Below, piece after piece: positions 44,023 to 57,386 of a DNA stretch of 64,000 nucleotides. The stretch comes from Candidatus Helarchaeota archaeon. Its GTDB lineage: Archaea > Asgardarchaeota > Lokiarchaeia > Helarchaeales > RDOG01. The translations under genes were made by a program, and so were the position numbers. The stretch lies in assembly GCA_019058315.1 (NCBI GenBank), contig JAHPZH010000003.1, positions 492,451-556,450 of the forward strand, read 5' to 3'. Each line of letters opens with the position of its first letter. Position 1 is the stretch's first letter. The notes below the pieces were generated by a model that worked only from the letters and a program-made list of their open reading frames with translations, ran no database searches and had not been told where the DNA came from.

Positions 44023-45717
44023 TTATGATTCTTTTTTTTCTTCCCATTCTCTAAGTTTTCTTCGAAATACTTTGCCTACAGCAGTACGGGGAAGTCTATT
44101 AATGAATTCTACTTTTCTTGGCCATTTATAACCTGCCATACGTTCTTTTGCCCATTCAATGATTTCCTGTTCTGTGATTTTCCCATCACGATATTCTTTT
44201 CTAAGTACAATAAAAGCTTTTATTGTTTCACCAATGACAGGATCCGGAACACCAACCACTCCTACTTCTAGAACTGCTGGGTGTTCATATAATTTTTCTT
44301 CTACCTCTCTAGGCATAACTTTATATCCTTTGTATTTAACCATATCCTTTGTTCGACCTTCAATGTAGAAATAGCCGTCCTCAGCCATTCTTGCTAAGTC
44401 TCCAGTTCTTAACCATCCATCAGATGTAATAGTTTTTGCTGTAGCTTCCGGTTTCTTCCAATATCCTTTCATAATCTGTGGACCCCGAATTAACAACTCC
44501 CCTACTTGATCTAATGGTAATTCTTCTAATGTCGCTGGATCTACAATCTTGGCGTCAGTATCGATTATAGGGACACCAATACTTTCAGCTCTTATTTCGG
44601 GAAGCCATTCTGGTTGTGTATGAGTTATAGGGCTTGCCTCAGTCAACCCATAACCTTGTCCCATTTTTACTCCTGTTACTTCCTCCCATCTACGACTTAT
44701 TTCGGGGGGTAAAGCTGCTGAACCTGATCCCGAGCTTTCTAAGGAGCTTAGATCGCGTTTTGTAAAATCTGGGTGATTTACGAGCATTTGGAACATTACT
44801 GGCACTCCAACAAACCCTCTTAATTTGTATGTCTCAATTGTCTTAAGGATTTCTCCAGCATCAAACGAAGTATACATGATCATCATCGCTGCTGCTGAGA
44901 GTGATATTAATACAACAGTGAAACCGAAAGTATGACATATTGGTAAGACTGTTACACTAGTAATCTTTCCAATTTCTTCTACATATCGATTCTTTGCTAT
45001 CCCCATTGTACATAATGCATCTGCTATAAGATTATTGTGAGTTAACATAACTCCCTTCGGCAATCCGGTGGTTCCTCCCGTATATAAAAGAGCCGCTATG
45101 TCATTTAATGGATCAATTTCAACTTTTGGAGGTTTAGGTTCCTTGTCTTTAACAAAATCTTCAAAAAGTATTGCATCACCTTTTGGTTTTTGGGCACCTA
45201 ACAAAATTACATTTTCAATTTCAACTTTCTCCCTAGCTTTTTTAATTGTCCTATAGTTGTCACTATGACAAAAAACCGTGTTAATATTACCAGCATCTCT
45301 TACTATATGAGCTACATCGGATTCTTTTAGTAATGGATTTATTGGAGTAGCCGCTGCTCCACATTGAGTTATCCCAAAAATTGAAAATATAAATTCTGGA
45401 CGATTGGAAGTCATAATCGCAACTGAACTTCCTTTTTTAACACCTAAATCATTATAAAGACCATTTGAAATCTTATCTGCATATAAAAAGACATCTCGAT
45501 AGGTATATTTCTTATCAGTGGGAACAAAATAAATAGCTACATTATTTGGAAAATCCTCGGCGACTTGCCGAATATAATCATTTATTGAAATTGGATCATA
45601 CTTGATGGTTTTTGGTATATCAGCAGGTTTGTAGCTATTCCAGATTCTATTTGGTCTAACATAAGGGGATTCGTTTTTATAATCGTAAATAGGCTCCCAT
45701 TTTTTTTCTTCACTCAT
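44023..45717 (-). CDS. Long-chain-fatty-acid--CoA ligase
   Basis: YTGGTTGLPKG, GYGLTEASP, RTGD, GRTKD, PRTAVGK. Confidence 0.93.
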   Translation of the reverse strand: MSEEKKWEPIYDYKNESPYVRPNRIWNSYKPADIPKTIKYDPISINDYIRQVAEDFPNNVAIYFVPTDKKYTYRDVFLYADKISNGLYNDLGVKKGSSVAIMTSNRPEFIFSIFGITQCGAAATPINPLLKESDVAHIVRDAGNINTVFCHSDNYRTIKKAREKVEIENVILLGAQKPKGDAILFEDFVKDKEPKPPKVEIDPLNDIAALLYTGGTTGLPKGVMLTHNNLIADALCTMGIAKNRYVEEIGKITSVTVLPICHTFGFTVVLISLSAAAMMIMYTSFDAGEILKTIETYKLRGFVGVPVMFQMLVNHPDFTKRDLSSLESSGSGSAALPPEISRRWEEVTGVKMGQGYGLTEASPITHTQPEWLPEIRAESIGVPIIDTDAKIVDPATLEELPLDQVGELLIRGPQIMKGYWKKPEATAKTITSDGWLRTGDLARMAEDGYFYIEGRTKDMVKYKGYKVMPREVEEKLYEHPAVLEVGVVGVPDPVIGETIKAFIVLRKEYRDGKITEQEIIEWAKERMAGYKWPRKVEFINRLPRTAVGKVFRRKLREWEEKKES

Positions 45718-45882: not shown

Positions 45883-47571
45883 GTGAGTAAAAACATTTCG
45901 GAGGAATTTATCCTTAAACATGAAGATATAGTTAGATCAATTTCTGTATCTCCAGATAAAAAATATTTAATCAGTGGTTCTCAAGATAAAACAATTAGAG
46001 TCTGGGAGTTGGAAACTGGAAATCTCGTTCATAATCTTAAAGGTCATACTGGTTGGGTATTAACAGTCGCAGTCTCTCCAAATGGAGAATATATTGTTAG
46101 TGGATCGTCAGACAAAACAATCAAAATTTGGGATCTTGAAACTGGGTTGCTTATCCGCACACTTGAAGGGCATAATCTTTATGTATTCTCCGTTGCAGTT
46201 TCTGAAGAATATATCTTTAGTTCATCTTGGGATAAGACTATTAAAGTCTGGAGTTTAAAAACTGGAAAATTAATACACACAATTAAAGGTCATAAAGATT
46301 GTGTGTATACAATAATTTTATCTCCTGATAATAATTATTTATTGAGTGGATCTTGGGATGCAACAATTAAGATGTGGGAGATAGGCACATGGAAACACAT
46401 CTGTGATTTCACAGGTCACGAGAGTGCTATTTATTCGCTTGCAATAACATCTGATGGAAGATATATCTTTAGTGGATCGGGGGATAATACCATTAAGATG
46501 TGGGATTCTAAGAATAAATTAATTATTCGCACTTTTGAGGCACATACAGATCAAATATATGCTCTTGCGGTTCTACCAGATAATAAAATTATTACTGGTT
46601 CGGCAGATAAAAGCATTTGGATTTGGAATTATTTAAATGGTTGGGCACTCGGGAAACTTACAGGATACTCAGCAATTTATTCTCTTGCAGCTCCAGGGAA
46701 ATATATTATTTGTGCATTCGAAGATAAAACAATTAAAGTATGGAATACAGATAAATTTCAAGAAGGAATCTCAATTGAAGAATTGATTAAATCACATTTC
46801 AAATTCGGACGAAGTACAGGCTATGATCTATTTAGTAAAGGTGCTTATTATCAGAATGTAGGAGATTACGTAAAAGCAATTGATTACTTTAAAAGAGCTC
46901 TTGAATATGAAATGCAAAATAGCGAAGTTTGGAATAGATTAGGAATATGTTATAGTTCTATGGGCAAGATAAAAGAAGCTATAGATTCTTTTCAAAATGC
47001 AATAAAAATTAATTCCAATGATAGTTCAATATGGATCAATATGGGTATAGCATATAGTATAACGGATAATAATAAGGCCATCGAATGCTTTCAAGAAGCT
47101 GTTAAAATTAACCCATATAATAGATTGGGTTGGTATATTATGGGATTGACTTATTTCCTTTCGGGTTCCGCTTTAGAATCTATTGATCCATTTAAAAAAG
47201 TTATAGAAATTAACCCTAATGGACTTTTTCCGTGGTATCATATTGGACTTGCACTCGCTTTTGTAGAAAAATTTGAAAAAGCAATCGAATGGTTGCAAAA
47301 AGCTATTAAAAATGATTCTTCGAATTATAAAGCTTGGATACTAATGGGAATATGTTATACCGAGTTAAAGAAAAAAGATGAAGCTATGAATTGTTATGAA
47401 AAAGCTATTAATCTATTAGAAAGTCATCTGCAAGTATTTCCTTATGATAGTGATGCGAGAATTTTCTTAAATTGGGCAAGATATAAAACAAATGTTAGTA
47501 AATATAAGTCAGAAATGCTAAAAAAGGAGAAAGAGAAAGCTAGAGAGAATATAAAAAGTTATTACTCTTAA
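45883..47571 (+). CDS. WD40 beta-propeller (7 repeats) + TPR solenoid (about 6 repeats)
   Basis: Seven GH..SGSxDxTIKxW units, then W-x2-(L/M/I)G..A..(F/Y)-x2-A TPR units. Confidence 0.93.
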   Translation: MSKNISEEFILKHEDIVRSISVSPDKKYLISGSQDKTIRVWELETGNLVHNLKGHTGWVLTVAVSPNGEYIVSGSSDKTIKIWDLETGLLIRTLEGHNLYVFSVAVSEEYIFSSSWDKTIKVWSLKTGKLIHTIKGHKDCVYTIILSPDNNYLLSGSWDATIKMWEIGTWKHICDFTGHESAIYSLAITSDGRYIFSGSGDNTIKMWDSKNKLIIRTFEAHTDQIYALAVLPDNKIITGSADKSIWIWNYLNGWALGKLTGYSAIYSLAAPGKYIICAFEDKTIKVWNTDKFQEGISIEELIKSHFKFGRSTGYDLFSKGAYYQNVGDYVKAIDYFKRALEYEMQNSEVWNRLGICYSSMGKIKEAIDSFQNAIKINSNDSSIWINMGIAYSITDNNKAIECFQEAVKINPYNRLGWYIMGLTYFLSGSALESIDPFKKVIEINPNGLFPWYHIGLALAFVEKFEKAIEWLQKAIKNDSSNYKAWILMGICYTELKKKDEAMNCYEKAINLLESHLQVFPYDSDARIFLNWARYKTNVSKYKSEMLKKEKEKARENIKSYYS

Positions 47572-47597: not shown

Positions 47598-49256
47598 TTA
47601 AATTTTCTCCTTATCTCTTAATTTTCTTCGAAGTATTTTTCCAACTGCACTTTTTGGGAAAGATCCTACAAATTCTACTTTTCTAGGATATTTGTAGGCG
47701 GCAAGTTCTTCACGTGACCAATCAATAATTTCTTTTTCAGTAATTTTTCCTTTGTATTCACTATTTAATCGGATAAATGCTTTAATAGTTTCACCTGCAA
47801 CGGGATCTGGAATCCCTACGACGGATACTTCTTCAATAGCAGGGTGTTCGTATAAAACTTCTTCTACTTCGCGTGGATAAACCGAATGTCCTTTATATTT
47901 AATAAGATCTTTCATTCTATCCAGAAGATAAATATATCCTTCTTCATCTAACTTACCATAATCTCCTGTTTTTAACCATATCATTCCACCAGCTTCAAAT
48001 AAGACTCCCTTTGTTTTTTCAGGTCTTTTATAATAACCCTTCATTACTTGCGGTCCACTTACAACAAGTTCTCCCTCTTTTCCAACAGGTAGAAAATTAT
48101 TATCTTCATCTATAATTCCAACATACGTATTTGGTATGGGAAATCCACAAGATCCTAGTTTTTTCTTTCCAAAAGGTGCATTTATACAAACAACAGGTGA
48201 TGCCTCTGTAAGCCCATACCCTTCTGCCATACGCCATCCTGTTATATTTTCCCATTTTTTTGCCAATTCTACAGGTAAAGCACCAGCACCAACATTTGCA
48301 AGTTGAAATTGTGACATATTAACTTTCTTTTCCTTGACTAGTGGATGATTCATAAGAGTTATAAACATTGTAGTAACACCTTGCATTCCTACGGCATCCT
48401 GATTAAATTTCTCCAATACTTCTTCTGGATTAAAAGTTGGAAATAAATAAGATTTAGCCCCAACTAATGAATTTAGCGCCAATTCGCAAGTTTGTCCATA
48501 AATATGATACCAAGGTAAGACACTGACCATTACTTGTCGTTCCCATTTATAAAATTCCTTTAAATGATTTACATATGGTACTAATTGATGCGCATTTGCA
48601 ACAACATTTCTATGTGTTAACATAGCACCTTTTGGATCTCCTGTTGTACCTCCTGTATATTGAATTATAGCAAGATCATCAGGATTTATATCTACTTTTG
48701 GTGGTTCCGGAGGATTGTTCATTATTGTATCAAAATGATAGATTCCATTTTCAGGATCTTCAGGTTTTTTTATTTCTTTACCCTCAACATTCACTAGAAT
48801 TATATTTTTAAGATTTGTTTCAGCTCTTATCTTTTTAACATGTCGGAAAAATCTATCTAATACTATTATTGTTGTAGCCCCACTATCATTTACTTGGTAT
48901 TTTACTTCCCGTCCAACAAAAAGTGGACTAATAGCTGTCAAATAAGCCCCAGTCGTAAGAATTCCAAAGTAACTGAAAATGAAATGAGGACAATTAGGAA
49001 GAAAAATAGCAACTATATCACCTTTCTTTATTCCTAATTTTGCAAGACCTGTAGCAACTCTTTTTGATAAATCAACTATCTGGTTAGCAGAAAATTCTCG
49101 TCCAAAATAGTCAATAACTATATTGTCACCGAATTTTTTTGCTGTATTTTCACCCATTTCGGGAATAGTCATGTCTGGAATTTCAACCCATTTGTCAAAA
49201 CCTGGTGGTGCATATTTCATCCAGTATTTGTCTTTAATTTCTTGAGGAATATCCAT
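47598..49256 (-). CDS. Long-chain-fatty-acid--CoA ligase
   Basis: YTGGTTGDPKG, EGYGLTEASP, KTGD, DRMKD, PKSAVGK. Confidence 0.93.
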   Translation of the reverse strand: MDIPQEIKDKYWMKYAPPGFDKWVEIPDMTIPEMGENTAKKFGDNIVIDYFGREFSANQIVDLSKRVATGLAKLGIKKGDIVAIFLPNCPHFIFSYFGILTTGAYLTAISPLFVGREVKYQVNDSGATTIIVLDRFFRHVKKIRAETNLKNIILVNVEGKEIKKPEDPENGIYHFDTIMNNPPEPPKVDINPDDLAIIQYTGGTTGDPKGAMLTHRNVVANAHQLVPYVNHLKEFYKWERQVMVSVLPWYHIYGQTCELALNSLVGAKSYLFPTFNPEEVLEKFNQDAVGMQGVTTMFITLMNHPLVKEKKVNMSQFQLANVGAGALPVELAKKWENITGWRMAEGYGLTEASPVVCINAPFGKKKLGSCGFPIPNTYVGIIDEDNNFLPVGKEGELVVSGPQVMKGYYKRPEKTKGVLFEAGGMIWLKTGDYGKLDEEGYIYLLDRMKDLIKYKGHSVYPREVEEVLYEHPAIEEVSVVGIPDPVAGETIKAFIRLNSEYKGKITEKEIIDWSREELAAYKYPRKVEFVGSFPKSAVGKILRRKLRDKEKI

Positions 49257-49402: not shown

Positions 49403-50608
49403 TTATAATGCTCTTAAAATCAAATCTGTAATATCGATAATTTCTAGCGATTCTTTATTCATTTCAGTAGCAGCAGCAGTTAAGTTATTCAAACAAAATG
49501 GACAAGCTGATGTAACTATTTTTGCATTTGTATCAATTGCTTCATCAATTCTAACTTTAGCAATTTCTAATGCTAATTCTGGAAAACTGCTTTTAACACC
49601 TCCACCTGCTCCACAGCACCAAGCATTTTCCCTATTTCTTTTCATTTCGATAAGCTGTAATCCAGGTATTAATTGAAGGATATTTCTAGGAGCATCATAT
49701 AAATTAGAAGAACGACCAAGATGGCAAGGATCGTGATATGTTACAATTTCATTAATTTCATTTTCAAATTTCAATTTTCCATTTTTTATTAGTTGTTCAA
49801 TGAATTCTGTGATGTGTAGAACTTCAAAAGGTAATTCCCCAACAAGATCAGGATAATCATTTTTTAGCGTTTTATAACACCCAGCACAGTGGGTTATTAT
49901 TAATTTCGCCCCGGAATTTTTTATAGCCTCAACATTTTTATATGCTAATTCTTTTGCTAAGGTTTTTTTACCAATCCTTAATGCTACACTACCACAGCAT
50001 TTTTCATTTTCACCAAGGATGCCGAATTCAACATTTGCTTTCTTTAATATTTTAATTACATTTTTTGTAATCCTTTGTGATCTGTAACTTTCTGTACATC
50101 CAATATAAAATATGATATCTGCTTTATTTGGGATTCTTTCACCTTTCAGCCAATTTAAACGATCACTATGTTTTTCCATATAGGGATTATTTTCTTCTTG
50201 ACACCAATCTAAAATTTCTTTATGTCTTGGTAAAATAAAACCATTCTCAACTAGATCTTCTCGAAATGCTTCCCAAACTGTCACATGATCTAACCAATAA
50301 GAGTTTGGTAGGTTAATACAAGGATCATAACTGTTATGGCAGATTGCTTTACAAGAACCACAAGTAGTACATTGGTAGAAACATTCTGCAATTTCCTCAG
50401 TTAATTCTAGGGTTCCCTCGAGGAGACCTTCCAGTACCCTAAACTTTCCTCTTGCGGTTGATGGTTCAAAACCAGCAGTATGTTCATAGATCGGACAGAC
50501 ACCGAACCTTCCTACTCCCGGGCGATGTCCAATTCTACAATCACCAACACCCATACATGAATGGATCATTTTTTCATATTTCTTTAAATTAGTCAATTTA
50601 ACCTTCAA
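49403..50608 (-). CDS. CCG-domain Fe-S oxidoreductase (GlcF/GlpC/HdrD-like)
   Basis: CTTCGSCKAIC, KCCG, HCAGC, YHDPCHLGR, WCCGAGGG, ACPFC; first cluster motif is atypical (CMGVGDC). Confidence 0.92.
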   Translation of the reverse strand: MKVKLTNLKKYEKMIHSCMGVGDCRIGHRPGVGRFGVCPIYEHTAGFEPSTARGKFRVLEGLLEGTLELTEEIAECFYQCTTCGSCKAICHNSYDPCINLPNSYWLDHVTVWEAFREDLVENGFILPRHKEILDWCQEENNPYMEKHSDRLNWLKGERIPNKADIIFYIGCTESYRSQRITKNVIKILKKANVEFGILGENEKCCGSVALRIGKKTLAKELAYKNVEAIKNSGAKLIITHCAGCYKTLKNDYPDLVGELPFEVLHITEFIEQLIKNGKLKFENEINEIVTYHDPCHLGRSSNLYDAPRNILQLIPGLQLIEMKRNRENAWCCGAGGGVKSSFPELALEIAKVRIDEAIDTNAKIVTSACPFCLNNLTAAATEMNKESLEIIDITDLILRAL

Positions 50609-50614
50609 ATTATC

Positions 50615-52123
50615 TCACTCACTATACATTCCTAAATTATATTTTCCCGGAGAAAGGATTCCTCGTGGATCTAAAGTTTGTTTAATATTTCTCAAAAAAT
50701 TAAGAAATTGTCCTGAAAATCCTCCTGTTCTTATTAAAGATCTTGAATATCTCAATCCAGTCATATATGGCATAACACCCAATTTAATAGCAGCATCCAT
50801 AAAGCTATCCCATAATTCTCCATTTAATTTTCTATATTCGGGTTTATTCCATACTATTAAACCTATAGGAAACGATATAGTTGTGTGGTCACATAAACTA
50901 ATCATTCCCCCAGTTGCAGGAAAGGCCTTAACAGCTTGTAGTTTTTCACTATTTTCAAGTGTCCATTTAGATAAACCCTTTGTTAATTCTGGGTAGTTAT
51001 GCATAGCTATTCTACATTCTGCTGATTGTCCGGTACTTTCTGGCCCTAATGCCCCCCATATATGATGTGAAACTTGCCAATATTCGTTTTTATCATTATC
51101 CCATTTAAATATCTTTTTTTGGGCATCAATAGACTCAACACCTTTTTCTGCTAATGAAATCTCTTCTATTATCTTTGAATTTTCTTCTATAATATTTTCA
51201 TTCTCGCCTATTAATTTGTATTCTAGCATAGACCTTCCTTTTGGGTTGATACTTTTCATATTTTCATCTATGGGAGGGAGATCAGGGAGAATTTTAATTA
51301 TAGAAGCCTGAACTAATGGGGAATCCATGAACTCGGCTCTAAAAATCCCTAAGTATCCTTTTTTACGACAATTAAATAAAATTTTAAGTGCTACTTCTGC
51401 GGACTTTCTTCTTAATGTAAAAGACATGTGAGATCGGAATTTAGGCTTTGAGTAAATTTTTAAAATTGCCTCAGTTTTAATTCCCATTATTCCATTATCA
51501 CCTAAAAAGATACCTAAAAGGTCAGATACGAACCCAAACCTATTAAACGGGTTTTTTACATATTTACATTCGCCAGAGCCAGTTTCTATAATATCACCAT
51601 TTTTATTTGGTAATACAACCTTTAATCCTATACAATTCTTCGTTACAGGCCCATATATTGCAATACCCTCTCCATAACTATTATTGCTCAATCCTCCTCC
51701 TACGACAGCTGACATTCCACTATTAGGCCCCACGTTTCCAGTGTAATACCCTTTTTCCATTAAGAAAGTATTTAATTCTGCCCAAGTTATTCCACATTGG
51801 ACTCTAACAGTTAGATGGTCTTCATCGAGATTCAATATTTTATTCATTCTTGTTGTATCGATCACAATACCTCCAGGTTTATACGGGATAGCTCCTTGCT
51901 GAAGTCCAGCACCTCCACCTCTTGGAATTATTGGAATTCTCTCACTATATGCAATCTTAACAATCTCAGAGATTTCCTCTGAATTTTCCGGGCGTACAAC
52001 AAAGTCTGGGAGATTATCTTCAATAACGGAATTCATAGATCTTGAATAACTCTTTCTAATGTAATCTGCGTTAGAAACATATTTACTACTGACAATATCT
52101 CTTAAGGAATTGAGAATATTCAT
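50615..52123 (-). CDS. FAD-binding oxidoreductase, GlcD/VAO family (downstream copy)
   Basis: PDFVVRPEN, PRGGGAGL, VVGGGL, GIMGIKT, LDPRGILSPGK; start ATG 52123 behind GGAG (ORF track 52147). Confidence 0.9.
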   Translation of the reverse strand: MNILNSLRDIVSSKYVSNADYIRKSYSRSMNSVIEDNLPDFVVRPENSEEISEIVKIAYSERIPIIPRGGGAGLQQGAIPYKPGGIVIDTTRMNKILNLDEDHLTVRVQCGITWAELNTFLMEKGYYTGNVGPNSGMSAVVGGGLSNNSYGEGIAIYGPVTKNCIGLKVVLPNKNGDIIETGSGECKYVKNPFNRFGFVSDLLGIFLGDNGIMGIKTEAILKIYSKPKFRSHMSFTLRRKSAEVALKILFNCRKKGYLGIFRAEFMDSPLVQASIIKILPDLPPIDENMKSINPKGRSMLEYKLIGENENIIEENSKIIEEISLAEKGVESIDAQKKIFKWDNDKNEYWQVSHHIWGALGPESTGQSAECRIAMHNYPELTKGLSKWTLENSEKLQAVKAFPATGGMISLCDHTTISFPIGLIVWNKPEYRKLNGELWDSFMDAAIKLGVMPYMTGLRYSRSLIRTGGFSGQFLNFLRNIKQTLDPRGILSPGKYNLGMYSE

Positions 52124-52175
52124 GTTTATCTCCGATTTATAAAACATTTGGTTTGTTAAACATTTAAAAATCTAT

Positions 52176-52232: not shown

Positions 52233-53741
52233 TTACTCACTATACATTCCTAAGTTATATTTTCCCGGAGAAAGGATTCCTCGTGGATCTAAAGATTGTT
52301 TAATAGTTCTCAAAAAATTAAGAAATTGTTCTGAAAATGCTCCTGTTCTTATTAAAGATCTTGAATATCTCAATCCAGTCATATATGGCATAACACCCAA
52401 TTTAATAGCAGCATCCATAAAGCTATCCCATAATTCTCCATTTAATTTTCTATATTCGGGTTTATTCCATACTATTAAACCTATAGGAAACGATATAGTT
52501 GTGTGGTCACATAAACTAATCATTCCCCCAGTTGCAGGAAAGGCCTTAACAGCTTGTAGTTTTTCACTATTTTCAAGTGTCCATTTAGATAAACCCTTTG
52601 TTAATTCTGGGTAGTTATGCATAGCTATTCTACATTCTGCTGATTGTCCGGTACTTTCTGGCCCTAATGCCCCCCATATATGATGTGAAACTTGCCAATA
52701 TTCGTTTTTATCATTATCCCATTTAAATATCTTTTTTTGGGCATCAATAGACTCAACACCTTTTTCTGCTAATGAAATCTCCTCTATTATCTTGTTATTT
52801 TCTTCTATAATATTTTCATTCTCGCCTATTAATATGTATTCTAGCATAGACCTTCCTTTTGGGTTTATAATTTTCAAATTCTCATCTAAGGGAGGGATGT
52901 CAGGGAGAATTTTAATCATGGAAGCCCGAACTAAAGAGGAATCTACGAAACCGGCTCTAAAAATCCCTAAGTATCCTTTTTTACGACAATTGAATAAAAT
53001 TTTAAGTGCTACTTCTGCGGACTTTCTTTTTAATGTAAAGGACATGTGAGCTTTGAATTTCGGCTTTGAGTAAATTTTTAAAATTGCCTCAGTTTTAATT
53101 CCCATTATTCCATTATCACCTAAAAAGATACCTAAAAGGTCAGATACGAACCCAAACCTATTAAACGGGTTTTTTACATATTTACATTCGCCAGAGCCAG
53201 TTTCTATAATATCACCATTTTTATTTGGTAATACAACCTTTAATCCTATACAATTCTTCGTTACAGGCCCATATATTGCAATACCCTCTCCATAACTATT
53301 ATTGCTCAATCCTCCTCCTACGACAGCTGACATTCCACTATTAGGCCCCACGTTTCCAGTGTAATACCCTTTTTCCATTAAGAAAGTATTTAATTCTGCC
53401 CAAGTTATTCCACATTGGACTCTAACAGTTAGATGGTCTTCATCGAGATTCAATATTTTATTCATTCTTGTTGTATCGATCACAATACCTCCAGGTTTAT
53501 ACGGGATAGCTCCTTGCTGAAGTCCAGCACCTCCACCTCTTGGAATTATTGGAATTCTCTCACTATATGCAATCTTAACAATCTCAGAGATTTCCTCTGA
53601 ATTTTCCGGGCGTACAACAAAGTCTGGGAGATTATCTTCAATAACGGAATTCATAGATCTTGAATAACTCTTTCTAATGTAATCTGCGTTAGAAACATAT
53701 TTACTACTGACAATATCTCTTAAGGAATTGAGAATATTCAT
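52233..53741 (-). CDS. FAD-binding oxidoreductase, GlcD/VAO family (upstream copy)
   Basis: Near-identical to 50615-52123 (18 aa differences counted by eye); start ATG 53741 or 53747. Confidence 0.9.
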   Translation of the reverse strand: MNILNSLRDIVSSKYVSNADYIRKSYSRSMNSVIEDNLPDFVVRPENSEEISEIVKIAYSERIPIIPRGGGAGLQQGAIPYKPGGIVIDTTRMNKILNLDEDHLTVRVQCGITWAELNTFLMEKGYYTGNVGPNSGMSAVVGGGLSNNSYGEGIAIYGPVTKNCIGLKVVLPNKNGDIIETGSGECKYVKNPFNRFGFVSDLLGIFLGDNGIMGIKTEAILKIYSKPKFKAHMSFTLKRKSAEVALKILFNCRKKGYLGIFRAGFVDSSLVRASMIKILPDIPPLDENLKIINPKGRSMLEYILIGENENIIEENNKIIEEISLAEKGVESIDAQKKIFKWDNDKNEYWQVSHHIWGALGPESTGQSAECRIAMHNYPELTKGLSKWTLENSEKLQAVKAFPATGGMISLCDHTTISFPIGLIVWNKPEYRKLNGELWDSFMDAAIKLGVMPYMTGLRYSRSLIRTGAFSEQFLNFLRTIKQSLDPRGILSPGKYNLGMYSE

Positions 53742-53949
53742 ATTCATCTCCTATTTATAAAAAATTTGATTTGTCAAACATTTGATTTACTTAACGTTTA
53801 AAAATCTATGTCCAGTCCAAATGAATAGTTTTAACGTTATTCGAAATATTTTATAGTTTTGGCGATGTTATTACTATATTAATCGAAACGGGTTTAGAAA
53901 AAAACCAATAAAATTAATAAAAATTTAAATATACTAATGATTTTGTCAC

Positions 53950-54147
53950 TTATTTTTCTATTAGATCCATTCCGCATAAAGGACAGTGATATGGGGCAAA
54001 AGGTGGTGGATTAAATAATATCAACTTGCCTTCTTCCTCCATTTGTTTTCGTAAATCATTCAATGCCTTATCCGGTACTGCAGAATGACTAACTCCATAA
54101 ATCACGACTTCTTTTTTGCAATTTTGACAATATAACATATTATTCAT
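53950..54147 (-). CDS. Small Zn-ribbon protein
   Basis: CQNC near the N-terminus and CPLC near the C-terminus; 65 aa, co-oriented with neighbours. Confidence 0.7.
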   Translation of the reverse strand: MNNMLYCQNCKKEVVIYGVSHSAVPDKALNDLRKQMEEEGKLILFNPPPFAPYHCPLCGMDLIEK

Positions 54148-54188: not shown

Positions 54189-55316
54189 TTATCTATAATA
54201 GTCCAAAAAAAATTCATTATATTTTTTATGTCTATTAATTTCTTCCCCTTTTTCGGTTAGTGGTTTCATACATAAAATGTAAAAATTACGGTCACTTATG
54301 AATTTCAACTTTCTAAATACTTTCATTTCATGCTGACAGCTTGTTATATGCGTTGCGAAAACGCTAGGGACTAAATTTCTTATTTTGCGAAGAATACAAC
54401 TAATAAAATCGATTTTTTGTTCCATATCCATATCTTCATGAAATCCGGCACTTGTTAAAAGGGCAACTGGTAACGTTAATAATTCATCTTCTTCATATTT
54501 GGCCGTGACAATTTCAATTCGATTATTAATTACAGCTTTTATTTCATTTTTTTCTTCTAGAATCCAAGAATAAAAATTATGCGGATCACCAAATAATGAA
54601 TTTAATAAATAAGTATTCTTATGATGTTTTTCATACCTTTTTAGTTCGTAAATTGTCGAAAGTGGAACTCTTGATTGGTAAGAATTAATGAGATCTATAA
54701 TTTTGGGATAATCTTCTATTTGGGCATCTCGGACTTTACCTTCTATATTAAATTCTGGAATATGAGAATATAAAGAAGCGATTTTTACCAATACAGGATT
54801 TACTTTGAAATCTTCCCTTAAAGCTTGTAGTCCTTGTTCTTCCATTAATTTAAGCAGATGTTTGTTTTTGCTATAGCTTTTAAAATCAAAGTGTTCCTTT
54901 AATAATTTATCACCAAAACGCCCTTTTTCTGGAAATGCCATTAAAAAATCAATTTTTTCTTCGATTGCTTTTTCAATCAATTTATTTAACAAAGCTTTTG
55001 CTATACCCTGACGTCTATATTCGGGATCTACAGCACATAACCCAAGATTTAATGCCTCAAACCGCAATTCATTATCCAGCATTATAGATTCTTGGTGTCC
55101 AAATAGTGTGCCGATTAATTTTTCTCCTTTATAAGCTCCAAAAATGAAATTTTTGGATACTTCACTTAATACGACGTCAAAATAAAATTTCGCATATTTT
55201 TCGCTCCATGGCATAGCCCCAGCTTCGACATATTCCCAAAAATATGTTTTATTAAGAACTTCTGCAATTTTAATAATTGGAAATGGTTCGACAATCCTTT
55301 TTACTTCGAAATCCAT
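54189..55316 (-). CDS. Tandem-GNAT acyltransferase, N-myristoyltransferase-like
   Basis: [16 protein letters not shown] motif A; second GNAT begins [19 protein letters not shown]; several segments parallel recalled NMT motifs. Confidence 0.8.
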   Translation of the reverse strand: [375 protein letters not shown]

Positions 55317-55352: not shown

Positions 55353-57386
55353 TTATAGATTTGGTTTACCATATTGGTCTCTAACCTTTGCCCTAAGAAC
55401 CTTCCCTACCGGTGATATAGGAAACTCTTCTGCAAAAACTACTGTCTTAGGTTTTTTATAACTTGCCATTTTCCCTCTACAGAACTCGATAATTTCTTCT
55501 TCGGTTATATCTTGATGTGGCTTAAGACCCTTTTTGGGAATAATAACAGCTCTTACAGCAGACCCCCACTCTTCGTCAGGAACTCCAATTACAACCACCT
55601 CGCTTATTTTAGGGTGTTGAATTAGAATTTCTTCTACCTCTAGAGGATAAATTTTTTCAGCACCACTAGTAATGCATTCTTTCAATCTCTCAACTAAAAA
55701 TAAATCACCATCCTTTCGGTATCCAAGATCTCCACCACGAAACCACCCATCTTTAAAAGCGGCTTTGGTTTTTTCCGGATTTTTATAGTATTCTTTCATA
55801 ATAGTGACACTTTTATACCATAGTTCACCGATTTCACCATCTTTTACATCTTCTCCAGTTTCAGGATCGACTATTCTCACTTCTAAGCCATCTATTTCAT
55901 GCCCGATTGATCTTTCAACAACTTGATCTGGGGTTGCATCAAGTCTTAATGAAATAATTGGAGACATTTCAGTCTGACCAAATCCATCAATAATTAAAGC
56001 ATTTGGAAGTAAATTTAGAAGAAGTTTTTTATATTTACCTCTAAATAAAGATCCCCCAGAAATTGCTACTTTTAATGAACTAAGATCAAATTTATTAATA
56101 TCGGGATATTCTAAAAGTCTTTTCCACATTGTTGGTACCATCATCAAAGATCTAATCCCTTGTTTTTCAACGAGTTCCAATATTTCTCTTATATCAAACT
56201 TTTTTGAAACAGGAAAAATCAATGGTTGACCAAAAAGTATCCAAGTAACTATACCGCTGACATATGCCGCAGAGTGGAAGAAGGGGGGCATATATAATGA
56301 TGGTGTTAGTATTTCAACCTTTCTACTTAGCATTGACTTTATTACTGCACTTCTTAATTCTTTATCACCTTCAAGCTTAATTCCTCCTGTTATTAGTCGC
56401 TTAATAGCAGGGAACAACATTTTAAGTCTTCCCACTCTGCTATATGCCAATGGAAATGTTTTAGCGGTTGAACGAATTTGTTTGCCAATTTCATAATAAA
56501 TTTTCAGGTCGGTCTTAAAATCAGGCATACCACTGAACATTTTAATTTTTTCTGTACCATCATCATCGGTTTTAGTAGTCATTGTTAATGGGGGAAGTTT
56601 TACACCTTTACTAGTTTCTGTTATCAGAAGCAAAGATTTACCTTTCAGAGTTTCGACATCTAAATCAACTAATGCTGCACCCATTCCCATAGAATCCATA
56701 ACTTCACCCATTTTACGTTGAAATGCATTTTTTGCGAATTTTTCTTCATGGAACTCTGAAATAGGGGGAAGAAAACTAGCTAGAAATGTGGTGGTCATTT
56801 CTAAATTAGAAATAAAGTTGTCATAAGTTAAAACTACACCTTTTGGACGACCTGTTGTTCCTCCTGTAAAACAGATTAGAGCCTCATCGAACTCTGAGAA
56901 TTTGCCTTTAACGTTTACTTTTCTTTTGCTTGATTTTTTAATTAATTCCTCATAATCAATCCAATTAGAGGGTAAATTATTACCATTACAAATAAATGCC
57001 TTAACCTTACTTAATTCTGATCTAATTTTTTCAATTTCCTCCAAATAATCTTGATCGATTATTAAAGCAACTGCATCACAATGATTTATAGCAAAACTGT
57101 ATTCTAAATGAGAATACATGTAATTTAAAGGAACTGCGACAGCACCGAAAGCTTGAATTGCTAAATGCGTCTCTAAAAATTCTGGTCCATTTCTAAAAAC
57201 AAAAGCTACTTTGTTATATTTTTTAACACCCAATTTTTTTAATGCATTCCCAAGCCGGTTTACTCTTTCTGCGAATTGTTTCCAAGTAATTTCTTGATCA
57301 CCACGAACTAATGCCACCCTATCTTTTGGATAATGACGGGCTTTTATATCAACATATTCTTTAAAAGGAGCTTTTCCCAAGTGCAT
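55353..57386 (-). CDS. Acyl-CoA ligase (AMP-forming) with an approximately 150-aa SCP2-like insertion
   Basis: FTGGTTGRPKG, GFGQTE, RGGD, ERLKE, PISPVGK; 677 aa against 552/564 aa for the two paralogs here. Confidence 0.9.
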   Translation of the reverse strand: MHLGKAPFKEYVDIKARHYPKDRVALVRGDQEITWKQFAERVNRLGNALKKLGVKKYNKVAFVFRNGPEFLETHLAIQAFGAVAVPLNYMYSHLEYSFAINHCDAVALIIDQDYLEEIEKIRSELSKVKAFICNGNNLPSNWIDYEELIKKSSKRKVNVKGKFSEFDEALICFTGGTTGRPKGVVLTYDNFISNLEMTTTFLASFLPPISEFHEEKFAKNAFQRKMGEVMDSMGMGAALVDLDVETLKGKSLLLITETSKGVKLPPLTMTTKTDDDGTEKIKMFSGMPDFKTDLKIYYEIGKQIRSTAKTFPLAYSRVGRLKMLFPAIKRLITGGIKLEGDKELRSAVIKSMLSRKVEILTPSLYMPPFFHSAAYVSGIVTWILFGQPLIFPVSKKFDIREILELVEKQGIRSLMMVPTMWKRLLEYPDINKFDLSSLKVAISGGSLFRGKYKKLLLNLLPNALIIDGFGQTEMSPIISLRLDATPDQVVERSIGHEIDGLEVRIVDPETGEDVKDGEIGELWYKSVTIMKEYYKNPEKTKAAFKDGWFRGGDLGYRKDGDLFLVERLKECITSGAEKIYPLEVEEILIQHPKISEVVVIGVPDEEWGSAVRAVIIPKKGLKPHQDITEEEIIEFCRGKMASYKKPKTVVFAEEFPISPVGKVLRAKVRDQYGKPNL

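Follow-up and report, generated by a model that had tools for sequence, protein, structure and literature searches.

Do archaea encode a relative of N-myristoyltransferase (NMT), and if so, what does it say about the origin of protein N-myristoylation, the modification on which Arf GTPases and many signalling proteins depend for their targeting to membranes? The question is raised by a gene, here called P0001, in a 64,000-nucleotide stretch of a Candidatus Helarchaeota genome (contig JAHPZH010000003.1, positions 492,451 to 556,450; hereafter the window). This modification is commonly regarded as one that eukaryotes invented (Meinnel et al. 2020, as cited in PMC12219266). An earlier note, made from the DNA letters alone, had described the P0001 product as an NMT-like protein with two GNAT domains, close to the NMT ancestor, and this description is partly supported by the analyses reported here. 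We consider it probable that P0001 is an NMT-type double-GNAT N-acyltransferase that uses acyl-coenzyme A (acyl-CoA), with an active N-terminal lobe, an acceptor site where the two lobes meet and a terminal carboxylate that serves as the base, and that it represents a divergent branch, restricted to one order, of an Asgard-wide family of NMT-like proteins.

A two-lobed protein with the fold of NMT

The P0001 open reading frame (ORF) lies on the minus strand, begins with ATG and encodes 375 amino acids (Table 1). We collected 25 full-length homologues of 373-379 residues that are 47-86% identical to P0001, and their alignment has a mean column identity of 67% and 48 invariant columns. Strong full-length matches occur only in the window's own order, where each of the three sampled genomes (3/3) carries two to three paralogues. 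Because of this conservation and the repeated occurrence of paralogues in the order, we conclude that the gene is real and under selection. All named members of the window family derive from Asgard metagenome-assembled genomes, most of them labelled Helarchaeota. An exhaustive phmmer search with P0001 against 1.84 billion representatives gave just 30 matches at E<=1e-3, and neither this search nor word-indexed searches returned a eukaryotic NMT sequence. A profile search with a broader alignment (A3) matched only Asgard proteins and two proteins of ~355 residues that share the N-lobe motif; it returned no bacterial or eukaryotic relatives.

Domain databases recognize only the first half of the protein. 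Residues 35-134 match the GNAT model PF00583 (1.4e-10) and the Eis-type model PF13527 (2.5e-10), residues 140-375 have no Pfam match, and the NCBIfam matches are weak and RimI-like. From the 25-sequence alignment AlphaFold2 produced a confident model, with a predicted local distance difference test (pLDDT) value of 93.3 and a predicted template-modelling (pTM) score of 0.90, which comprises two alpha/beta lobes joined by a helical linker and followed by an ordered C-terminal tail. When this model was compared with the PDB by Foldseek, all of the top 50 matches were NMTs (E 3e-19 to 4e-17, template-modelling (TM) scores 0.67-0.74), in alignments of 360-390 columns at 11-15% identity. These enzymes come from Candida, human (NMT1/2), Plasmodium, Cryptosporidium, Leishmania, Aspergillus and yeast.

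An independent VIA-align search of 48,161 representative chains also put NMT at the top. Yeast NMT was first (Z 28.3; 339 residues superposed with a root-mean-square deviation (rmsd) of 3.3 A, model residues 1-374 against NMT 77-455) and Cryptosporidium NMT reached Z 27.6. Below them stand the tandem GNAT MAB_4324 (Z 24.9, with an alignment that stops at model residue 353), the Eis family (Z 19.4-22.7, rmsd 5-6 A), tandem GNATs of the clavulanate pathway and of glucosamine acetylation (Z about 22), HisAT (9emd; Z 16.1, stopping at model residue 355) and FemA (1lrz; Z 14.5, rmsd 6.5 A). The earlier note had held that a best structural match to Eis or Fem would speak against its reading; NMT instead came first in both Foldseek and VIA-align. 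Eis, FemABX, HisAT and other tandem GNATs were thus considered as best matches and set aside, as all of them rank under NMT in VIA-align. P0001 likewise gives no Pfam match at E<=1 to the FemAB or L/F-transferase models, or to the Eis domains PF17668 (Acetyltransf_17, the central domain) and PF13530 (SCP2-like).

The C-terminal tail is a distinguishing part of this comparison. Alignments that take in the tail of P0001 are limited to NMT, the Eis-like chains and one short chain from Pyrococcus (3ddd); those of the other tandem GNATs end near residue 353. The superposition on yeast NMT extends to model residue 374 and to the very last residue of NMT, 455. All 25 window-family members end in Y-[YF]-R and stop at the same residue, with Y373 and R375 invariant, and the last two blocks of the P0001 model have pLDDT values of 93 and 81.

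A second Asgard family and the sequence chain to NMT

Sequence comparison reaches NMT most clearly through an intermediate. When the whole window-family profile was searched against the PDB, NMTs of seven species appeared at E 0.01-1, all of them matched in one region. A profile of the C-terminal half alone (residues 150-375, 25 homologues) was more selective, as every match it gave across the PDB at E-values of 10 or below was an NMT (7/7), the best being yeast NMT at E 0.0028. This profile pairs the segment 'iPe..G.iR....ed...v.ellnsY.sr.pl' with yeast NMT 219-270. A collinear second stretch, individually insignificant, pairs 'kvfkklkf' with 'TFLEKLKF' of human NMT2 (347-366).

The intermediate is a second Asgard family, which we call A4. 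We scanned 301 genomes of the phylum and 14 control genomes with the Pfam NMT model PF01233, whose curated threshold is 25 bits (that of NMT_C, PF02799, is 27.9 bits). ORFs of about 363-382 residues exceed the PF01233 cut-off in 33 genomes, and matches at E<=0.01 are concentrated in three GTDB families (23/28, 11/11 and 7/7 genomes). Matches of the A4 type occur in 52 of the 301 genomes and in none of the genomes of the window's order or the 14 controls; the window's own genome (G000) has no PF01233 match at E<=0.01. Eleven of the matching ORFs make up the A4 alignment. The best PF01233 score in an A4 member is 46.1 bits, and some A4-type ORFs carry collinear NMT_C matches below the cut-off. 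Family members derive from Heimdallarchaeota (Heimdallarchaeaceae), Gerd-, Thor- and Lokiarchaeota, and one of them (P0218) is from a cultured species, Ca. Lokiarchaeum ossiferum. Grouped at 90% identity they make up at least 133 clusters, whose annotations go no further than 'GNAT family N-acetyltransferase' or hypothetical protein.

Both links in the chain are significant. Searched against the PDB, the A4 profile matches NMT at E 6.7e-13, its first 35 matches are all NMTs, and the alignment (profile 18-266 against P. vivax NMT 55-288) runs from the N-lobe through the linker into the beginning of the C-lobe. In turn, hhalign aligns the window family with A4 locally at 92.9% probability (E 3.6e-7) in an alignment that covers the linker. 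The global alignment (89.9%) runs over 322 collinear columns that include both the terminal Arg and the pairing of K-x-F-x-K-L-K-F with K-P-L-K-K-A-K-F. Because these two profile steps are significant and the folds agree, we conclude that P0001 is a real but distant two-lobed relative of NMT and that the likeness is more than chance. The description of P0001 as an NMT-like double-GNAT protein in an archaeon was therefore borne out: it is a tandem GNAT of an Asgard archaeon, homologous to NMT by way of A4.

A joint alignment of the two Asgard families identifies the positions that have resisted change. A61, G104, G135, R196 and P317 are invariant, and D202 is present in at least 90% of the sequences. 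The R-x5-D spacing that opens the C-lobe recurs in the alignments to yeast, Candida, human NMT2 and P. vivax NMT. GNAT motif A is found in the N-lobe only; G104 and A106 are invariant in the window family, and through the A4 bridge the motif aligns with 'R-S-K-R-L-A-P' of NMT.

The finer claim of the earlier note, that four segments of the protein (residues 28-46, 90-110, 195-223 and 333-348, all present in the translation) are each collinear with NMT, fared unevenly. The third segment is the one aligned with NMT 219-270. The fourth, which contains 'VFRKLKF', is collinear with NMT2 347-366 at a significance too low to stand alone. The second lies about one residue out of register with the profile alignments. 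The first was not confirmed at the residue level, some of its residues being placed in an insertion by hhalign.

Table 1. Positions of the P0001 gene, its predicted parts and the A4 family (window coordinates; locus coordinates for A4)
Feature	Coordinates	Strand	Basis or remark
Coding sequence of NMT-type double-GNAT protein P0001 (stop codon included)	54189..55316	-	ORF list and translation; homologues; AlphaFold2 model
N-terminal GNAT lobe (residues 1-157), predicted acyl-CoA-binding and catalytic	54846..55316	-	PF00583/PF13527; model secondary structure; alignment to NMT N-lobe
GNAT motif A, R101-R-Q-G104-I-A106-K (R/Q-x-x-G-x-G/A), putative CoA pyrophosphate-binding turn	54996..55016	-	conservation; A4 bridge alignment
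Inter-lobe helical linker (residues 158-192)	54741..54845	-	helices 161-169 and 174-184 in model
C-terminal degenerate GNAT lobe (residues 193-352), without motif A, matching NMT C-lobe	54261..54740	-	C-half profile; no Pfam match in P0001
R196-x5-D202 motif opening C-lobe	54711..54731	-	R196 invariant, D202 in >=90% across both Asgard families
C-terminal tail (residues 353-375), ending in invariant ...Y-Y-R-COOH	54192..54260	-	conservation; ordered in model; structural alignment
A4 ORFs (P0069, P0111-P0225)	L025:1498-2589, L026:1504-2595, L027:1450-2547, L029:772-1860(-), L030:760-1854(-), L035:925-2019 and others		~363 residues, ending ...D-W-R-COOH

The two Asgard families share their length class, their architecture, the invariant residues G104, R196, G135 and P317, and an end of the form aromatic-Arg-COOH. 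In 110 of 111 full-length A4-type proteins the last residue is R, and 109 of those end in W-R. The two families differ in that A4 passes the PF01233 threshold and matches NMT at E 6.7e-13, levels that the window family does not reach. Pairwise identity between them is just 13-18%, and their distributions do not overlap in our sample. The A4 tail, ...[FY]-x-[DEY]-W-R-COOH, contrasts with ...D/Q-Y-[YF]-R in the window family, which is one residue longer and has Y/F in place of W. We therefore treat the window family as a sister of A4 rather than as a member, and by sequence comparison A4 is far closer to NMT. Weaker matches to the window family (1e-11 to 1e-17) were obtained in 13 other Asgard genomes, most of them in A4-type ORFs of ~366-393 residues and a few in shorter or N-lobe-only frames. 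In the genomes searched, the window family is confined to its own order, and it would be a divergent branch of a family of NMT-like proteins that extends across the Asgard archaea.

Further double-GNAT proteins were encountered in these genomes. A 383-residue paralogue (P0110; G000:C5:1100557-1101690 on the plus strand, equivalent to L007:1498-2649) is 24% identical to P0001 and carries the sole Pfam NMT_C match, at 16 bits, in the window's 5.8-Mb genome. The subfamily to which it belongs (P0036, P0041, P0043, P0045, P0052) ends in a different hydrophobic tail of fixed length, ...FYLPYIGFLI. A third double-GNAT family of 421-430 residues (P0103, P0108; L031:1039-2304, L032:17-1282(-), L033:910-2181(-), L036:1000-2274) occurs in genomes of the window's class, with source names Promethearchaeia and Promethearchaeota. 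Its members carry PF13527 in the N-lobe and NMT_C matches of 25.7-26.9 bits, just under the cut-off of 27.9, and they end in ...PDTYY or ...SSYL.

Proposed chemistry and competing explanations

We assign the active role to the N-lobe because motif A is confined to it and G104 is invariant in both Asgard families. In the mechanism that we propose, motif A (R101-x-x-G104-x-A106) of the N-lobe would bind acyl-CoA, and the C-lobe, a degenerate GNAT domain lacking the CoA motif, would shape the site for the acceptor between the lobes. Folding back, the ordered tail would allow the carboxylate of Y-Y-R-COOH to take a proton from the acceptor amine in the way known from NMT (and Eis). In NMT the base in catalysis is the C-terminal carboxylate (PMC12219266), and a last residue that is invariant in both length and sequence is what would be expected if the chain end of P0001 were itself functional in the same manner. 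The fold, the chain of homology, the place of motif A, the constancy of the tail and the distribution come from the comparisons above, whereas the N-acylation chemistry and the catalytic role of this carboxylate are inferred.

Several observations weigh against this reading. First, the direct sequence similarity of the window family to NMT is marginal (E about 0.003-0.01), and P0001 has no match at E<=1 to either NMT model, PF01233 or PF02799. By curated criteria the protein would accordingly be called only 'a GNAT' and not a Pfam NMT member. Second, Asn169 of NMT (yeast numbering) aligns through the bridge alignments to Gly92 of P0001, and therefore the catalytic constellation is not identical to that of NMT. 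Third, the proposal that the tail brings a catalytic carboxylate into the active site draws its position from alignment ranges and conservation. Fourth, tandem GNATs of different chemistry score just 3-6 Z units below NMT in VIA-align, and bacterial double-GNATs of uncharacterised function fit the P0001 model slightly better than eukaryotic NMT does (TM 0.80 versus 0.76). A few members of the window family come closer to the Pfam models: three of the 25 match NMT_C below threshold (the best, P0021, over residues 183-230 at 5.6e-4 and 20.1 bits), and two match PF01233 below its cut-off (best E 2.6e-3).

The most serious competing explanation, to which we would give a sizeable chance somewhat short of even, is that P0001 uses the NMT architecture on other substrates, as HisAT/NAT16, Eis and the glucosamine N-acetyltransferases do. 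It would then transfer an acetyl or other short acyl group to the amine of a small molecule or peptide, such as an amino acid, a polyamine, an aminoglycoside-like compound or another metabolite. The N-lobe is indeed best matched by ordinary acetyltransferase models, the Eis-type PF13527 among them. The characterised prokaryotic tandem GNATs found at Z 21-25 act on small molecules (the glucosamine N-acetyltransferase 5kf1, the clavulanate-pathway enzyme 2wpw, and Eis). HisAT, an NMT-like double-GNAT enzyme, acts on a free amino acid (PMC12219266). The side chain of the invariant terminal Arg, a residue that NMT does not conserve, might hold a small acceptor by an anionic group. However, none of these enzymes is the best match: the Eis superpositions have rmsd values of 5.1-5.4 A, HisAT reaches only Z 16.1, and the others align without the tail, ending at ~353. 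The Eis central and SCP2 domains are also missing from the Pfam matches of P0001, and no conserved biosynthetic cluster surrounds the gene at the loci examined.

That P0001 is instead a true protein N-terminal fatty-acyl (myristoyl-like) transferase, moving long- or medium-chain acyl groups from acyl-CoA, which would be plentiful in the cell of a hydrocarbon- and fatty-acid-degrading helarchaeon, onto an N-terminal Gly (or a Lys) of archaeal proteins for membrane anchoring, we regard as improbable. In its favour, NMT is the best solved structure match and the sole PDB family of the C-half profile, and the tail meets the terminal residue of NMT in the superposition. The gene also lies 36 bp downstream of an acyl-CoA synthetase gene, one of three AMP-binding genes within 14 kb. 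Weak sub-threshold matches to the long-chain acyl families FeeM (5/25 members, best 3e-4) and NodA (3/25) point in the same direction, and we take neither them nor the synthetase neighbour as evidence for a C14 pocket. On the other side, the first ~76 residues of yeast NMT have no counterpart in P0001 in the structural alignment, the nearest look-alikes are bacterial proteins of uncharacterised function, and archaeal membranes are isoprenoid-based.

Neither the gene neighbourhood nor the candidate substrates help this explanation. As a clue to the acyl donor, the neighbourhood had to be abandoned: the synthetase and a zinc-ribbon gene that flanks P0001 on its other side are both absent from five other loci (L001, L002, L004, L014, L015), two of which are from the window's order. 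Only a cluster of FAD-oxidase and CCG genes recurs as a neighbour, once (L004). Because the neighbours do not recur, the context gives no reliable clue to the donor. The description of P0001 in the earlier note as a long-chain acyltransferase is not supported. Arf GTPases, to which that note had linked the enzyme, were likewise considered as substrates, and the link is unsupported. The window's genome has 103 small-GTPase-type (PF00025-type) matches, and 40 of these proteins combine an ATG start with a GTPase domain at the N-terminus. Met-Gly opens just one of the 40, which is not Arf-like (starts were assigned heuristically). The three Arf-like proteins begin MINMND, MIAEGK and MKEKNS by the same heuristic. 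These results concur with a published report that Asgard Arfs have no predicted myristoylation sites and that their membrane binding proceeds without myristoylation (PMC11914678). On contig C11 of this genome, four proteins with GTPase domains, about 385-400 residues long, are encoded in a row (e.g. C11:698286-702389).

The weakest alternative, that the resemblance to NMT is convergent or generic to any tandem GNAT, is disfavoured and very unlikely, as the marginal direct E-values, the 12-15% identity in structural alignments and the many tandem GNATs above Z 20 are outweighed by a C-half profile that matches NMT exclusively, two significant profile steps, collinear columns that take in both the KxFxKLKF motif and the terminal residue, a common R-x5-D motif, and NMT models that match the correct lobes in every branch.

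The surroundings of P0001 in the window deserve a brief description. The adjacent acyl-CoA synthetase (55353-57386, minus strand, 677 residues) is an AMP-binding protein whose best NCBIfam match is a long-chain-fatty-acid--CoA ligase, below cut-off. Its Pfam match is split (residues 15-197 and about 363-674), which implies that about 165 residues are inserted into its adenylation domain. The other two AMP-binding/acyl-CoA synthetase genes lie at 44023-45717 and 47598-49256, both on the minus strand, and interleaved with the three is a plus-strand gene for a 562-residue WD40 and TPR protein (45883-47571). This arrangement suggests a 14-kb region devoted to the activation of organic acids. The zinc-ribbon gene, 41 bp from P0001 on the downstream side (53950-54147, minus strand), encodes a 65-residue protein with two CxxC pairs and does not accompany the homologues at the other loci examined. 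Beyond it are two tandem FAD_binding_4 oxidases (50615-52147 and 52233-53747, both on the minus strand) whose proteins are 96% identical (485/504) and differ chiefly in a cluster of positions in the middle third. The pair, which is followed by a CCG/4Fe-4S protein (49403-50608), appears to have arisen when a GlcD/D-lactate-dehydrogenase-like gene was recently duplicated in tandem. A FAD/CCG/FAD trio also adjoins the NMT-like homologue in L004.

Evolutionary context and comparison with known systems

The nearest shapes to the P0001 model in the ESM Atlas are not eukaryotic. Bacterial double-GNAT clusters of ~350 residues fit best over residues 1-374 (TM 0.80, 0.78 and 0.77), followed by eukaryotic NMT clusters (0.76 and 0.75) and NMT-like proteins of giant viruses (0.71). 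A Heimdallarchaeota member of A4 gave the same order with higher scores (TM 0.86-0.87 for the bacterial clusters, 0.81-0.82 for eukaryotic NMT), and by language-model features the same bacterial clusters are nearest to both proteins (0.95-0.97). These clusters carry PF00583 and PF13527, are drawn from Aminicenantota, Myxococcota, Acidobacteriota, Pseudomonadota, Bacillota and Chloroflexota, and include one Acidobacteriota cluster in which 14% of members match PF01233. In sequence they have no significant match to P0001 beyond the N-lobe motif, either in exhaustive phmmer or in profile searches. Their existence agrees with a 2025 report of NMT-type double-GNAT models, with the C-terminus at the active site, in both archaea and bacteria, which leaves their history unresolved (PMC12219266). 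We conclude that the Asgard NMT-like family sits within a larger, mostly bacterial superfamily of uncharacterised proteins. The remark in the earlier note that N-myristoylation is considered a eukaryotic feature must be qualified in the light of that 2025 report.

These observations also temper any claim of a direct line from Asgard archaea to eukaryotes. Nothing in our data shows that eukaryotic NMT descends from the P0001 gene, or even from an Asgard lineage. The suggestion that P0001 lies close to the NMT ancestor is not supported: the protein fails both Pfam NMT models, its branch is restricted to one order, A4 is closer to NMT, and bacterial double-GNATs resemble P0001 at least as much as eukaryotic NMT does. 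As P0001 belongs to the more divergent branch, the Heimdall/Loki family is the better guide to the ancestor. What the P0001 family does offer is an architecture with a strictly conserved C-terminal end that has been kept and duplicated in Helarchaeota. Our literature search found no paper that explicitly links NMT to Asgard archaea, and the presence of genuine NMT homologues in them, a cultured species included, makes the origin of N-myristoylation testable at the bench. For such experiments A4 is a better candidate than the window's gene.

It is a long shot that the P0001 family and its Heimdall/Loki sister are both working fatty-acyltransferases of protein N-termini or lysines with the terminal carboxylate as base. 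If this were true, NMT-style lipidation would predate eukaryotes and would have been inherited from an Asgard ancestor, and the window family would be a version particular to its lineage, adapted to the acyl-CoA pool that a hydrocarbon-degrading archaeon contains.

Among known systems, eukaryotic NMT (EC 2.3.1.97; yeast Nmt1p in 2p6e and 1iic, human NMT1/2 and the P. vivax enzyme) is the closest counterpart of P0001. Both are single chains with two GNAT lobes and a helical linker, with motif A in the N-lobe only, a degenerate C-lobe opened by R-x5-D, and K-L-K-F near the end of that lobe. NMT differs in its size (about 420-500 residues versus 375), and P0001 has an archaeal host. The P0001 family ends in an invariant aromatic-Arg pair; the terminal side chain of NMT is variable.

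Mycobacterial Eis, with the Eis-like acetyltransferases (PF13527, PF17668 and PF13530), resembles P0001 in its PF13527-type N-terminal GNAT domain, which is the active lobe, and in an alignment that spans model 2-374 against Eis 1-402. The C-terminus of Eis also returns to the active site. However, these superpositions reach only Z 21.4-22.7 with the larger rmsd given above, and P0001 follows its first lobe with a full second GNAT lobe and a short tail, whereas Eis combines GNAT and SCP2 domains.

HisAT/NAT16 (9emd, with the archaeal Ta0821 in 3c26) is likewise a double-GNAT protein with an active N-lobe, and homologues of the HisAT type are known in archaea, including Thorarchaeota (PMC12219266). 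In contrast to NMT, its alignment to the model leaves out the tail. The two types have been distinguished by whether the C-terminus lies at the active site, as in the NMT type, or whether a beta-hairpin with a substrate-binding Trp is present, as in the HisAT type (PMC12219266). By this criterion, as applied to the predicted structure, P0001 appears to be of the NMT type rather than the HisAT type.

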